A DNA stretch of 64,000 nucleotides from Clostridia bacterium (GCA_017437145.1 JAFSBT010000002.1:22855-86854), one strand, 5' to 3'. Counted from the stretch's first letter, positions 6,720 through 30,464 are shown. The notes: a model not told the origin generated them from the letters alone. Numbers and translations are program-made.

Positions 6720-6901
6720 AAGCTAAAATATTAATTTTTGAAAATAAGTACCATTTGTCAAAAATTAATTATTTTAGCTTTTTAAAATTTAATTAAAAAT
6801 ATAATATTTTTAATTAAATCGATGAAATGCGAGTGTTATTTAAATTTTTCTACCCGATGATTTTGAAAAATCCAACTACCAAATTCTAAATTCCAAACTC
6901 C
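6720..6901. repeat. composite AT-rich intergenic element (AAGCTAAAATATTAATTTTTGA hairpin family)
   Basis: 62-bp perfect hairpin + second palindrome + CCAACTACCAAATTC tail; homologous to 11124 and 30281 copies. Confidence 0.7.
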
Positions 6902-7016
6902 ATTTGTCGAAAAAGATTGAAATATAGGCTTTTTTTGCATACGATTTAACTTGCTTTTTGGTATATATGTATAGTATAGTTGTAAAGTATGAAAAAACGA
7001 AAGAGGAGGAAAAATT

Positions 7017-7358
7017 TTGGAGGCTTCAAGGACTTATCATGGTGGAACTTTTTTAGGATGGGATGACTTACAAGAAGCAAAAATAAACCATAGAGTAGAG
7101 CTAGAATATTACCAAACAAAAAATGATATCAATAATATTTTAAATGAAGATACTACAAAATACGGAATAGAAGTATTAAAAAAAGAATATGAAAAAGATA
7201 GAATATATATTGAAAGCAATAATATAAAAAATGTATGTGATAGTTCAAAAAAAGTTATAGAAATAATAAATGTACTAAAGAAAAACAAAGTAACGCCAGT
7301 AGGATTACAAGATGTGTTAGATGATTTATTAACACAACAAAGAATGCATTTGGATTAA
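7017..7358 (+). CDS. hypothetical protein (113 aa)
   Basis: ORF with AGGAGGA RBS and TTG start; no recognisable family. Confidence 0.4.
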   Translation: MEASRTYHGGTFLGWDDLQEAKINHRVELEYYQTKNDINNILNEDTTKYGIEVLKKEYEKDRIYIESNNIKNVCDSSKKVIEIINVLKKNKVTPVGLQDVLDDLLTQQRMHLD

Positions 7359-7390
7359 ATCCAAATGTTATTTTTTTATTTGCTATCTAT

Positions 7391-7418
7391 TTACATGAAT
7401 TTGCATTTAGTATATAAT
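7391..7418 (+). promoter_or_regulatory. candidate promoter for glyA
   Basis: TTACAT-16 nt-TATAAT. Confidence 0.35.
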
Positions 7419-7450
7419 GCCTTTAAAAGTAAAATGAGGGGAGTGATTTT

Positions 7451-8686
7451 ATGCCTACCTTTGAGAATTTAAAAAAACAAGACAAACAAGTATATGAAAC
7501 TATAGAAAAAGAATTAGAAAGACAAAGAAATAAAATAGAGTTAATTGCTTCAGAAAATGTTGTAAGTGATAGCGTAATGGAAGCAATGGGTAGTTATATG
7601 ACAAATAAATATGCAGAAGGTTATCCAATGCATAGATATTATGGAGGATGCGAGTGTGTAGATGTCGTTGAAGACATTGCACGTGATAGATTAAAAGAAA
7701 TTTTTAGAGCAGAATATGCAAATGTACAACCTCATTCAGGAGCTCAAGCAAATATGGCAGTATATTTTGCAATATTAGAACCAGGAGATACAGTACTTGG
7801 AATGAATTTATCTCATGGTGGACATTTATCACATGGAAGTAAAGTTAATTTTTCAGGGAAATTATATAATTTCATACCTTATGGAGTAGACGAAAAAACA
7901 GGTAGAATAGATTATGATGAAGTAGAAAGATTAGCAATAGAAAATAAACCAAAACTAATTTTAGCAGGAGCTAGTGCATATCCAAGAGAAGTAGATTTTA
8001 AAAGATTTAGAGAAATAGCTGATAAGACAGGAAGTTTATTTATGGTAGATATGGCTCATATTGCTGGATTAGTTGCAGCAGGATTACATCAAAATCCAGT
8101 AGAATATGCTGATTTTGTAACAAGTACAACGCATAAAACATTAAGAGGACCAAGAGGTGGAATAATATTATGCAAAGAAGAATATGGTAAAGCAATAGAT
8201 AAAGCAGTTTTTCCAGGAATACAAGGTGGTCCATTAATGCATGTGATCGCATCAAAAGCAGTATGTTTTGGAGAAGCATTAAAACCTGAATTTAAAGAAT
8301 ATCAAGCACAAGTAATAAAAAATGCAAAAGTATTAGCTGAGGAATTAGTTAAATTAGGATTTAATTTAGTATCAGGAGGAACAGACAATCATTTAATTTT
8401 AGTAGATTTAAGAAACAAAGGAATAACAGGAAAAGAATTAGAAGAAAGATTAGATGAAATAGGAATAACACTTAATAAAAATTCAGTACCATTTGACACA
8501 GAAAAACCTACTATAACTAGTGGAGTAAGAATTGGAACACCAGCAGTTACAACAAGAGGATTTAAAGAACAAGAAATGGTAAAAATAGCAAAACTTATAA
8601 ACATGACAGTAGAAAAATATGAAGACAAGAAAGAAGAAATAAAAGCAGAAGTAGCAAAATTGTGCGCACAATTTCCATTATATTAA
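7451..8686 (+). CDS. glyA: serine hydroxymethyltransferase
   Basis: 411 aa, SHMT motifs ([27 protein letters not shown]). Confidence 0.95.
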
Positions 8687-8737
8687 TTATATTTAAAAAA
8701 TATATATGTATAATTAGAATAAAAAATAGCAAAGAAA

Positions 8738-8767
8738 TGTAGGGGGTGAACTGTGTTCGCCCGCAAA
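8738..8767. repeat. TGTAGGGG-family element (half copy)
   Basis: tgtagggggtgaactgtgttcgcccgcaa. Confidence 0.7.
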
Positions 8768-27938: not shown

Positions 27939-29120
27939 ATGAGTATTAGAGAACGTTTAAGTGGTAATGAAGCAGCAGCTATTGCAATGAAACAAATAAA
28001 TCCAGATGTAGTAGCAGCATTTCCTATAACACCATCAACAGAAATACCACAATATTTTTCAACATTTGTAAATAATGGAGAAGTAAATACAGAGTTTGTT
28101 GCAGTAGAAAGTGAACATAGTGCTATGGCTGCAACAATAGGAGCAGAAGCTGCTGGTTCAAGAGCTATGACAGCAACATCTGCAAATGGATTATCATTAA
28201 TGTGGGAAATGATATATATAGCATCTAGTTTAAGACTTCCTATAGTAATGAGCTTAGTAAATAGAGCTGTATCAGGACCTTTAAATATCCATAATGACCA
28301 TTCAGATGCAATGGGAGTTAGAGACGCTGGATGGATAATGCTATTTTCAGAAAATAATCAAGAAGCATATGATAATTTAGTAATGGCTCATAGAATAGCT
28401 GAACACAAAGATGTGAAATTACCTTTAATGGTATGTCAAGATGGATTTATTACATCACATTCAATTGAAAATATTGAATTAATTGAAGATGACAAAGTAA
28501 AAACTTTTGTTGGAGAATATAACCCAGAACAATATTTATTAAATAAAGAAAATCCAATAGCAGTTGGACCATTAGATTTGCAGGGCTATTTATTTGAACA
28601 TAAAACACAGCAAGCAGAAGCTATGAAAAATGCTAAAAAAGTAATTTTAGAAGTAGCAGAAGAATTTGAGAAAATGACAGGAAGAAAATATTCTTTCTTC
28701 GAAGAATATAAAATGGAAGATGCAGAAATTGCAATAGTATGTATGAACTCAACAGCAGGAACAACAAAATATGTTGTTGATAGTTTAAGAGAAAAAGGTG
28801 TTAAAGCTGGATTATTAAAATTAAGAGTATTTAGGCCATTCCCAGCAGAAGAAATTGCAAAAGCATTAGAAAATGTAAAAGCTGTTGCAGTTTTAGATAA
28901 ATCTGATTCATTAAATGCTGCAGGAGGAGCACTATTCGAAGATATTACATCAGCTATGTATGTGAACAAAAAGCGAGTTCCAATGGTTAACTATGTATAT
29001 GGAATAGGTGGAAGAGACACAAAATCAGATGATATAGAAAGCGTATATAACGATTTAGCAGAAATTGCTAAAACAGGGGAAATAGATAATCCATATAGAT
29101 ATTTAGGATTAAGAAAATAA
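27939..29120 (+). CDS. porA: pyruvate:ferredoxin oxidoreductase alpha subunit
   Basis: 393 aa, conserved alpha-subunit N-terminus. Confidence 0.9.
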   Translation: MSIRERLSGNEAAAIAMKQINPDVVAAFPITPSTEIPQYFSTFVNNGEVNTEFVAVESEHSAMAATIGAEAAGSRAMTATSANGLSLMWEMIYIASSLRLPIVMSLVNRAVSGPLNIHNDHSDAMGVRDAGWIMLFSENNQEAYDNLVMAHRIAEHKDVKLPLMVCQDGFITSHSIENIELIEDDKVKTFVGEYNPEQYLLNKENPIAVGPLDLQGYLFEHKTQQAEAMKNAKKVILEVAEEFEKMTGRKYSFFEEYKMEDAEIAIVCMNSTAGTTKYVVDSLREKGVKAGLLKLRVFRPFPAEEIAKALENVKAVAVLDKSDSLNAAGGALFEDITSAMYVNKKRVPMVNYVYGIGGRDTKSDDIESVYNDLAEIAKTGEIDNPYRYLGLRK

Positions 29121-29142
29121 GATGAAATTTGTATTTTAAAAT

Positions 29143-29192
29143 GTAGGGGTCGGTCTTGACCGACCCAGGGCAGGTCAAGACCTGCCCCTACA
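29143..29192. repeat. TGTAGGGG-family element, full copy with terminal inverted repeats
   Basis: tgtagggg...cccctaca with two internal hairpins (ggtcggtc/gaccgacc; gggcaggtc/gacctgccc). Confidence 0.8.
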
Positions 29193-29235
29193 ATGAATAA
29201 ATATAATTTATCTAATTATAGGAGGTAATATAAAA

Positions 29236-30189
29236 ATGGCATATAATTTAAAACAAGTAGTTGCGGAAAAACCATCAAGATTTACAGCAGGACACAGAAT
29301 GTGTGCTGGTTGTGGAGCTCCAGTTGTTGGAAGAATGGTTCTTCGTGCATTAAAACCAGAAGACCATGCAGTAATATCATGTGCAACAGGATGTATGGAA
29401 GTTTCAACATTTATTTATCCATATACAGCATGGACAGATTCGTTTTTACATACAGCATTTGAATGTAGTGCAGCAAATGCATCAGGCGTAGAAGCTGCAT
29501 ATAAAGCATTAAAAAGAAAAGGAAAAATTCCAGAGGACCAAGAAACAAAATTCATAGCATTTGGAGGAGATGGTGGAACTTATGATATAGGTTTACAATC
29601 TTTATCAGGTGCAATGGAAAGAGGACATGATATGGTTTATGTATGTTATGATAACGGTGCATACATGAATACAGGTATTCAAAGGTCAAGTGCAACACCA
29701 AAATTTGCTGATACAACAACATCACCTGCTGGAAAAGTAGTTCCAGGAAAAATGCAAAGTAGAAAAGATTTAGCAAATATTATGGCAAATCATCATATAC
29801 CATATGTGGCTCAAACAGCTGCAGTAAATAATTTTAAAGATTTATATGAAAAATCAGAAAAAGCTATATACACAAAAGGTGCAGCATTTTTAAATGTTTT
29901 AGCTCCATGCCCAAGAGGATGGGGATACAACACAGAAGATTTAATGCAAATAAATAAATTAGCAGTAGAAACATGCTATTGGCCATTATTTGAAGTTGTA
30001 GATGGTAAATACGTAGTAAATTATAAACCTAAAAACAAACTTCCAATAGAAGAATTCTTAAGACCACAAAAAAGATTTAAACATATGTTTAAACCAGGAA
30101 ATGAATGGATGATAGAAGAATTCCAAAAAGAAGTAGATAGAAGATGGGAAGAGTTATTAAATTTAGAAGAAATTACAAATAGGGAATAA
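29236..30189 (+). CDS. porB: pyruvate:ferredoxin oxidoreductase beta subunit (TPP-binding)
   Basis: 317 aa, CAGCGAPVV, GDGG TPP motif. Confidence 0.9.
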   Translation: MAYNLKQVVAEKPSRFTAGHRMCAGCGAPVVGRMVLRALKPEDHAVISCATGCMEVSTFIYPYTAWTDSFLHTAFECSAANASGVEAAYKALKRKGKIPEDQETKFIAFGGDGGTYDIGLQSLSGAMERGHDMVYVCYDNGAYMNTGIQRSSATPKFADTTTSPAGKVVPGKMQSRKDLANIMANHHIPYVAQTAAVNNFKDLYEKSEKAIYTKGAAFLNVLAPCPRGWGYNTEDLMQINKLAVETCYWPLFEVVDGKYVVNYKPKNKLPIEEFLRPQKRFKHMFKPGNEWMIEEFQKEVDRRWEELLNLEEITNRE

Positions 30190-30216
30190 TTAATAAATAA
30201 ATTTAATTTCAAACGT

Positions 30217-30250
30217 TGTAGGGGCGATTTTAATCGCCTGCTCTTCGAAG
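30217..30250. repeat. TGTAGGGG-family element (half copy)
   Basis: tgtaggggcgattttaatcgcctgctcttcgaag. Confidence 0.7.
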
Positions 30251-30280
30251 AAATTACTAAAAAATATAATAGGTATATTT

Positions 30281-30464
30281 AAGCTAAAATATTAATTTTT
30301 GAAAATGAATGCTCATTTGTCAAAAATTAATTATTTTAGCTTTTTAAATTTTGATGAAAAATCTAAAATTTTTCATCAAATCGATAGAATGTCTACATTA
30401 TTTTAATTTGATGCTCGATTATTTAATCCAACTTTCTAACATCCAACTACCAAATTCAAAACTC
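30281..30464. repeat. composite AT-rich intergenic element, copy 3
   Basis: First 80 bp near-identical to copy 2; second palindrome tgatgaaaaat/atttttcatca; ends ccaactaccaaattcaaaactc. Confidence 0.7.

Follow-up and report, generated by a model that had tools for sequence, protein, structure and literature searches.

The question raised by a 64,000-nucleotide (nt) stretch of Clostridia bacterium DNA (GCA_017437145.1, JAFSBT010000002.1:22855-86854; referred to here as the window) is why three of its intergenic regions carry the same pair of adjacent hairpins, the first constant in sequence and the second different in sequence in each copy, but palindromic in all of them. These sites represent a family of small non-coding interspersed repeats that has not been described before and is present in a few uncultured gut Clostridia. 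The family, which consists of small, modular and strand-specific hairpin repeats, is new; the class itself is familiar in bacteria. The unit is approximately 140 nt long, contains a first hairpin (HP1), a second hairpin (HP2) and a 3' domain, and occurs in three copies in the window, all on the same (+) strand. The 22-mer left arm of HP1, AAGCTAAAATATTAATTTTTGA, is matched exactly only at 6720, 11124 and 30281, always on the + strand, where no match is expected by chance, and the right arm, TCAAAAATTAATTATTTTAGCTT, is identical in all three copies. The three composite hairpin copies described in an earlier note on this DNA are therefore real. With minimum arms of 13 nt and a maximum loop of 8 nt, the whole window contains eight perfect inverted repeats, whereas 20 first-order Markov simulations contain none.

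Approximately 40 copies of the unit are recovered overall, from six related metagenome-assembled genomes (MAGs) of uncultured gut Clostridia/Clostridiales: SIG349 (approximately 20 copies), RGIG1848, SGB_3351, SGB_660, E25_bin59 and Lapin-015_bin45. The genome scan covers species-representative contigs, with one genome per species, and 36 stretches matched; individual loci are cited below by their L numbers. A scan of JGI metagenomes adds only three copies, and a hidden Markov model built from 29 full copies adds two more partial or diverged copies in the sampled loci. The matches in Parablautia and Polaribacter involve a single arm only and are due to chance. A phage origin is rejected as well, because the sole match in a viral contig is a chance hit within a coding region. 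Relatives in which the PFOR-beta protein is 86-93% identical contain no copies across 8-21 kb, and almost no hairpins of the REP type described below. The family is therefore confined to a narrow clade.

The constraint on HP1 is one of sequence and extends to two extrahelical bases. It is arranged as AAGCTAAAATA-TTAATTTTTGA-AAATGA, a 4-nt loop, and TCATTT-G-TCAAAAATTAA-T-TATTTTAGCTT, which gives approximately 27 pairs and leaves one G and one T of the 3' arm extrahelical. The hairpin begins with AAGC, is preceded by the context ..AAAYT, and extends inward, through AAATGA/TCATTT, beyond the part that had been noticed before. Both bulges are retained in 27 of the 29 aligned copies. HP1 copies at orthologous sites are 61/62 and 60/62 identical, the adjoining 3' domain is approximately 86% identical and the spacers are unalignable; the 61/62 and 86% values hold for copy 3 and its ortholog in SIG349 (L012). 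Where HP1 is variable, it covaries. The apical AAATGA/TCATTT is swapped for a GC-richer extension in RGIG1848, and an identical 24-nt apical extension is present at five loci of this genome. A diverged copy in L004 (7471-7300) has the arms AGCAAAAT.../...ATTTTGCT and a 45-nt apical insert. The predicted fold is very stable (-40.9 kcal/mol, z = -7.1). Long perfect duplexes in general are targets of RNase III, and the 27-bp stem of HP1 would be such a substrate. The T-run that follows HP1 is 4-5 nt long in 33 of the 39 HP1 matches (including two mirror-strand hits of palindromic copies), two of its T's are paired, and the run leads into A's.

HP2, in contrast, is constrained only to pair, and not in sequence. 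It follows the pattern TTT-nnn(n)-GAAAA(A)T, a 3-7 nt loop, and A(T)TTTTC-nnn(n)-AAA, in the 5' context TTTAAAWTTT. In the 29-copy alignment, 96.8% of the HP2 cells are paired and 8 of the 13 pairs change on both sides. Column pair 104/128, for example, is C-G in 13 copies, A-U in 13, G-C in two and U-A in one, and is broken in none. This level of covariation is reached by none of 500 shuffles, the pairing goes down to 38-58% when the partner column is slid, and the top four mutual-information pairs of the entire alignment are all stem pairs of HP2. All 34 HP2 regions, from the original and the additional copies, fold as a stem of 10-16 bp, and none is disrupted by a point mutation. HP2 is absent from six copies owing to truncation or rearrangement, not to point decay: L009, L037, L021 and L028 break at the HP2 apex, and L004 and L038 end after HP1. 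These results bear out the core of the proposal in the earlier note, namely that structure rather than sequence is kept in the second palindrome; the contrary observation named there, frequent disruption of this palindrome in further copies, is not seen. Only the middle 3-4 pairs and the loop vary; the TTT/AAA pairs outside them and the GAAAAT/ATTTTC pairs inside are invariant. The variable core occurs in at least 12 versions, of which ACTG predominates in SIG349, and in most copies the loop is non-palindromic and 3-5 nt long.

The two hairpins are joined by a T/A linker of 8-10 nt, which consists of the T4-5 run and A-rich sequence, and HP2 is followed by the 3' domain of approximately 40 nt. 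This domain had not been noticed in the earlier note, and neither had the GTAG-type REP hairpin ahead of each window copy. The motifs ATCGA, ATTyTAAT and CCGAW of this domain are conserved, but its fold is not. Neither a third helix in the 3' domain nor pairing between this domain and the HP2 core is detected by RNAalifold, and no mutual-information coupling is found outside HP1 and HP2. A mini open reading frame (ORF) of nine codons (ATC GAx ... TAA/TGA) in approximately half of the copies is rejected, because its start codon, frame and stop are not conserved in the remaining copies. Only some copies are followed by a tail, the motif of which, CCAACTACCAAATTCWAAA, occurs exactly at 5108, 6872 and 30443 (not at 5104 and 6877, as previously written), and with three mismatches at 27396, the degenerate site earlier placed at 27385. 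A fifth match is found within a coding sequence (14862, minus strand), and relatives also contain the tail in inverted orientation. The tail is an independent module, because the first of the exact occurrences follows a REP hairpin without HP1 or HP2. The location always just upstream of a gene start that was attributed to it is incidental: the composite is placed by the end of the upstream gene, seven sites are convergent, and inverted tails exist in relatives. A further C-rich, G-poor module, CACTTCACAC(A/C)TCACATTTCCCACTTCTA, is present 3' of the tail in L012, L025 and L026 of SIG349. Both this module and the CCAACTACCAAATTC tail resemble a C-rich, G-poor tract of the Rho-utilisation type. 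The features of the window are listed in Table 1.

Table 1. Coordinates of the repeat modules and accompanying features in the window
Feature	Position	Strand	Description
HP1, copy 1	6720..6781	+	62-nt AT-rich hairpin, ~27 pairs, extrahelical T and G on 3' arm
HP1, copy 2	11124..11185	+	
HP1, copy 3	30281..30342	+	
HP2, copy 1	6787..6819 (arms 6787-6802/6804-6819)	+	Perfect 16/16 palindrome, variable core AATT
HP2, copy 2	11192..11224 (arms 11192-11207/11209-11224)	+	Perfect 16/16 palindrome, variable core GACAG
HP2, copy 3	30350..30380 (arms 30350-30362/30368-30380)	+	13/13 arms, variable core GATG
3' domain, copy 1	6820..6860	+	ATCGA ... ATTTAAAT ... CCCGAT; no conserved fold
3' domain, copy 2	11225..11263	+	
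3' domain, copy 3	30381..30420	+	
Tail after copy 1	6872..6890	+	C/A-rich, G-free module
Tail after copy 3	30443..30461	+	
Tail behind REP	5108..5126	+	No HP1 or HP2 in between
acpP terminator	6585..6615	+	Canonical A-tract, 14-bp stem, T-tract; upstream of copy 1
REP hairpin before copy 1	6655..6678	+	GTAG-type; separate repeat family
REP hairpin before copy 2	11004..11084	+	Nested ~50-nt insert; 98% identical to 35721-35801
REP hairpin before copy 3	30218..30241	+	GTAG-type
Empty site	20218..20225	+	Filled in SIG349 (L026) by a 505-nt block directly after the stop codon

Copies are gained and lost between relatives, and the family is multi-copy and modular. HP1 is present alone in L004 and L038, and HP2 with the 3' domain is present without HP1, directly behind a REP hairpin, in L027 (4590-4470). 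Contig 1 of SIG349 is 92-96% identical to the window. In this genome, the HP2 core of L012 differs from that of copy 3 by two compensated pair changes (ACTG/CAGT vs GATG/CATC), and the ortholog of copy 2 (L004) consists of HP1 alone; the window carries approximately 830 nt of extra DNA with HP2, the 3' domain and a remnant of a ParE-type toxin-antitoxin system. This remnant comprises an ORF for an 86-amino-acid antitoxin-like protein and, behind it, a ParE-family toxin in truncated form (Pfam E = 1.5e-07), at 11407-11667 and 11759-11923; the pair is missing from the SIG349 ortholog, and the edge of the indel lies exactly at the HP1/HP2 junction of copy 2. The L026 block that fills the empty site contains, in order, three REP hairpins, HP1-HP2-3' domain and the tail, between flanks of the form TAA...TAA. 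The glyA-topA interval contains a diverged unit in SIG349 (L004) and only a REP hairpin in the window. The region 3' of ftsH contains the unit alone in E25, a REP hairpin alone in RGIG1848, and unrelated GC hairpins in a third species. Variants that are specific to one lineage are found at several loci, so that copies spread or homogenise within genomes.

The unit lies between the stop codon of one gene and the promoter of the next, in the sense orientation. The nearest upstream gene is co-oriented with it in approximately 32 of the 34 informative copies, and the downstream gene is co-oriented in 26 copies and convergent in seven. A divergent setting is found only at L016, where the unit lies ahead of a tRNA-Gly promoter, and possibly at L040; no copy is placed antisense between tandem genes. 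The upstream genes of copies 1, 2 and 3 of the window are acpP, topA and the PFOR-beta gene, respectively. The downstream genes, whose functions have no connection with one another (DUF6514/glyA, a toxin-antitoxin pair and the gene for the CCA-adding enzyme), have promoters of their own 3' of the unit (TTGACA-18-TATAAT at 11340 and an extended -10 at 30472). Thus, the position of the unit is related to the ends of genes rather than to their starts. GC skew is positive on the strand of the element in 34 of 35 loci, including L022, where the seven genes around the copy are all encoded on the opposite strand. Replication, rather than transcription, may therefore set the orientation of the unit. 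L022 points to replication, and the excess of convergent over divergent settings points to a preference for the terminator side.

The window is a segment of a bacterial chromosome with 28% GC, nearly all of its genes are on the + strand, and its GC skew is strongly positive. It contains rpsL-rpsG-fusA-tuf, plsX-acpP, glyA, topA and the genes for the PFOR subunits. A glmS ribozyme is located at 40347-40503 upstream of glmS (94.7 bits), and a MazF/PemK toxin gene at 37042-37401 (E = 2.8e-34). A GTAG-type REP hairpin is present within approximately 150 nt upstream of about three-quarters of the copies of the unit, and nearly all copies are flanked by true GTAG-REPs. Approximately 20 GTAG-headed, GC-rich REP-like hairpins (tGTAGGGGCG...CGCCCGC) are found in the 64 kb, nearly all on the + strand and some as inverted doublets (REPIN-like), at 1263, 3556, 5043, 6655, 8739, 11005, 13828, 15419, 15470, 21197, 29143/29186, 30218, 35722, 36812, 40175/40229, 42438 and 43193. 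A survey of such elements mentions neither Firmicutes nor Clostridia (PMC3733652). The hairpins at 13828-13853, 15419-15444 and 15470-15490 lie within long ORFs (12985-14130 and 14051-16819), where the in-frame translation is VGANCVRP; the giant gene around them (12033-19340) is split into four ORFs. They are possible in-frame insertions, comparable to those of other REP families and to the Rickettsia palindromic elements. The insert of approximately 50 nt in the REP loop (GATTAGCTGTGCGAAATGAAATGAGCTACAG...) that is shared by 11004-11084 and 35721-35801 is also present in L016 (approximately 2840-2930) and L033, and related loop inserts are present in REP hairpins of SIG349, in one case oppositely oriented. 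Other non-coding sequences of approximately 60-140 nt are dispersed as pairs with 86-92% identity: 3411-3536 and 27232-27358, located upstream of tuf and within the PFOR operon, and 1105-1242 and 27695-27832, located after rpsG and before PFOR alpha. These may be further intergenic modules or shared leaders.

With regard to the process that has produced and kept these copies, the unit is best read, with moderate confidence, as a clade-restricted, non-coding and non-autonomous hairpin repeat of the SPRITE/BOX/REP kind, dispersed strand-specifically in terminator-side DNA. According to this reading, the unit would accumulate one-way just downstream of genes, and GTAG-REPs and the C/A-rich tail would join it, so that mosaic intergenic regions build up. 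HP1 would be a sequence-specific recognition hairpin for a protein that copies or binds the element, and HP2 would need to form a stem-loop in single-stranded nucleic acid. The strict orientation would result from a strand-specific, replication-coupled process that involves single-stranded DNA, together with tolerance of insertions on the terminator side. Effects on transcripts, such as those of a terminator with a long stem and a short U-tract, or of a barrier to 3' exonucleases as proposed for the pneumococcal SPRITE, would be secondary.

Several points weigh against this reading. No mobilising enzyme, terminal inverted repeat or target-site duplication is identified in the sampled loci. In particular, no protein or ORF family recurs beside the copies in approximately 350 kb of these loci, no transposase or Y1_Tnp domain is found among 20 window ORFs scanned against Pfam, no RAYT gene is found among the window ORFs checked, and no consistent direct repeat flanks the units in the copies compared. 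The sole clean filled/empty pair is that of the 505-nt multi-module block, and not of the unit alone. Ordinary terminator hairpins at three orthologous sites of element-free relatives hint at functional replacement rather than at junk, and a host function would explain equally well why HP1 is conserved at orthologous sites. Replication-linked and transcription-linked orientation are inseparable on draft contigs.

A possible, though doubtful, alternative is that the unit is a domesticated RNA element of the sense-strand 3' untranslated region, in which HP1 with its U4-5 terminates transcription or blocks 3' exonucleases, HP2 serves as a second protective or processing stem-loop, and both are kept by host use. 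The position between stop codon and promoter, the sense orientation, the stable fold and the precedent of SPRITE (PMC3049150) are all consistent with this possibility. Canonical terminators, with a short GC-containing stem, a loop of 3-8 nt and a T-tract of at least five of eight bases, are present elsewhere in the window (for example, at 37411-37437, 42401-42426 and 6585-6615). A consensus scan detects no terminator-like site in 6600-7040, 10950-11420 and 30150-30560, and copies 2 and 3, after topA and PFOR-beta, are accompanied by no other such site. Orthologous sites without the unit carry canonical terminators instead, namely AAAAAAAGCC...GGCTTTTTTT in L047 and ATATCGTAG...CTACGATATTTTTT in L033, and HP1 is followed by T9 in the HP1-only copy L038. 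Copy 1, however, lies downstream of the perfect terminator of acpP and is therefore not needed as a terminator there. HP2 and the 3' domain lie past the putative termination point, yet they are conserved. An invariant stem sequence of 44 nt is unnecessary for a terminator, and the U-tract is short, partly paired and followed by A's.

The pairs themselves also argue against a simple sense-RNA element. Strict Watson-Crick pairs account for 97.8% of the paired cells. On the sense strand, three G.U pairs are found as compared with approximately 8-10 A.C mismatches overall, and within HP2 no G.U pair as compared with 4-5 A.C mismatches. The asymmetry is reversed in the GTAG-REPs of these genomes, with 24 G.T and seven A.C on the sense strand (65 distinct hairpins, in which the events are not independent). 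The same G.T bias is taken by Di Nocera et al. (PMC3733652) as evidence that REPs are transcribed. Because G.U pairs are nearly absent from the sense strand, the attribution of the second palindrome to an RNA hairpin, as offered in the earlier note, does not follow from the data; action as RNA and action as single-stranded DNA are both possible. The reversed wobble asymmetry is an unexplained hint, and not a proof, since the element counts are small.

It is unlikely, but conceivable, that HP1 and HP2 are the substrates of an unrecognised hairpin-specific system that is distinct from that of GTAG-REP and RAYT. Such a system might be a recombinase or transposase that acts on single-stranded DNA, reads the bottom strand and recognises the invariant HP1 stem; this stem with its two bulges is reminiscent of integron attC sites and of IS200/IS605 ends. 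Alternatively, it might be a host protein that marks the 3' ends of genes genome-wide. If such a system exists, its signatures would be the reversed wobble, the bulges that are retained in HP1, the apical module that can be exchanged and the breakpoints that recur at the hairpin apex.

An improbable explanation is that the palindromy is kept by mutation alone, in that intrastrand template switching (quasipalindrome correction) copies one arm onto the other and the hairpins have no function. The near-complete Watson-Crick pairing with almost no wobble intermediates would be expected from this process. So would the many swaps that are transversion pairs, such as C-G and A-T at 13:13, for which no wobble route is possible, and the four copies broken at the HP2 apex, as expected for hairpin-prone DNA. 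In L034 and L036, moreover, the HP1 bulges are "corrected" by matching insertions, which gives a perfect palindrome. This is a signature of template switching, so that a process at the DNA level contributes to the symmetry of the arms. Constraint as well is indicated by the confinement of HP2 variation to the middle pairs and the loop, with fixed pairs on either side, and by the persistence of both HP1 bulges in nearly all aligned copies. Loops that in most copies stay short and non-palindromic, as in a real stem-loop, also speak against this explanation, as does the slower evolution of HP1 in comparison with the non-coding DNA next to it.

It is very improbable that the unit is a small RNA gene in its own right or a cis-regulatory leader of the downstream gene. 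The covariation of HP2 would suit either, and an AT-rich TATAAA-like box is present 2-3 nt upstream of HP1 in many copies. However, no -35 is found at a workable spacing and no terminator lies behind the unit; TTnCTA boxes in the upstream spacer are only 10-14 nt from the TATAAA box, a spacing that is too short. A search of the whole window at the Rfam 15 gathering score returns only glmS, and an E-value search on copy 3 returns chance-level matches only (E >= 1.6). Seven copies face a convergent gene, the downstream genes are unrelated in function and have their own promoters after the unit, and the mini-ORF is not conserved. A promoter within the unit is also rejected, because the consensus scan gives only an AT-rich minus-strand pseudo-promoter in the HP1 apex (TTGACA-17-AAAAAT). 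These boxes, a perfect TTGACA -35, a 16-17 nt spacer and an AAAAAT -10-like box, are found on the minus strand at the apex of every HP1 (30323-30295, 11166-11138 and 6761-6734) and point back toward the upstream gene; they are probably a by-product of the palindrome. Finally, double-stranded operators for a dimeric protein, the other possibility raised for the second palindrome in the earlier note, can scarcely be credited in spite of the near-perfect palindromes and the invariant HP1 sequence, because the variable core of the HP2 half-sites takes at least 12 sequences, the 27-bp HP1 arms with their asymmetric bulges are far beyond operator length, and it is behind genes rather than at promoters that the sites are found.

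The repeat is a clear natural case of two adjacent hairpins under different constraints, HP1 being held to its sequence and HP2 merely to its pairing. In this uncultured gut lineage, which is very AT-rich, the DNA behind genes has been rebuilt from a few hairpin modules at places where relatives carry ordinary terminators. As recognition sites for a protein or transposase, the hairpins would imply that Clostridia have a mobilisation system not yet described; as RNA elements, they would represent a regulon-wide 3'-end module. In practice, MAG assemblies are fragmented by such repeats, which could be used as strain markers and could be mistaken for small RNAs or riboswitches.

Comparison with known repeats places the unit closest to elements of other Firmicutes and to REP mosaics. 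The pneumococcal SPRITE has an 18 bp stem and a U-rich stretch, follows the coding strand and shows strong enrichment immediately 3' of coding sequences; BOX and SPRITE share modularity, a coding-strand bias and this enrichment (PMC3049150). The unit is likewise a small non-coding Firmicute repeat with an unusually long stem, oriented with the coding strand behind genes. Unlike SPRITE, it includes another hairpin, which is constrained in structure only, and a 3' domain with conserved motifs; its U-tract is limited to 4-5 nt, and its first stem carries two conserved extrahelical bases and an exchangeable apical extension. Like BOX (boxA-boxB(n)-boxC) and the BIMEs of E. coli, it is part of intergenic mosaics of modules that are present, absent or recombined, form predicted stem-loops and vary between close relatives. 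The modules are, however, different ones (REP, HP1, HP2 with the 3' domain, and the tail), they are not amplified in tandem, and the host clade is another.

REP elements are defined by GTAG or GTGG located 0-2 nt 5' of a fully paired stem of 7-20 bp with a loop of 2-5 nt, are recognised as folded single strands, and are mobilised, as GTAG-REPs or REPINs, by RAYT (TnpA-REP) Y1 transposases (Di Nocera et al. 2013, PMC3733652; Quentin et al. 2018, PMC6006769). REP elements are strand-specific, have neither terminal inverted repeats nor target-site duplications, and are found mainly 3' of coding regions, between unidirectional or convergent ORFs. The unit resembles them in its location and strand specificity and in that no inverted repeats bound it. 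HP1 and HP2 differ from them in that they are AT-rich, are 31-62 nt long, show the opposite wobble asymmetry and have no GTAG or GTGG head, which is present in the neighbouring GC-rich hairpins. The Correia elements of Neisseria and the bcr1-type miniature inverted-repeat transposable elements (MITEs) of Bacillus cereus are also short structured repeats, which are co-transcribed with neighbouring genes; once transcribed, Correia elements are targets of RNase III (PMC3049150). Both have terminal inverted repeats of the whole unit and defined target duplications, neither of which is found here. The unit is small, non-coding, multi-copy and polymorphic for presence and absence, as is a MITE, but its inverted repeats are internal and its 3' end, ...CCCGAT, is not the complement of its 5' end. 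It does not qualify as a classical MITE, a GTAG-REP, an Rfam family or a canonical terminator, and its closest analogues are SPRITE, BOX and the REP/BIME mosaics.

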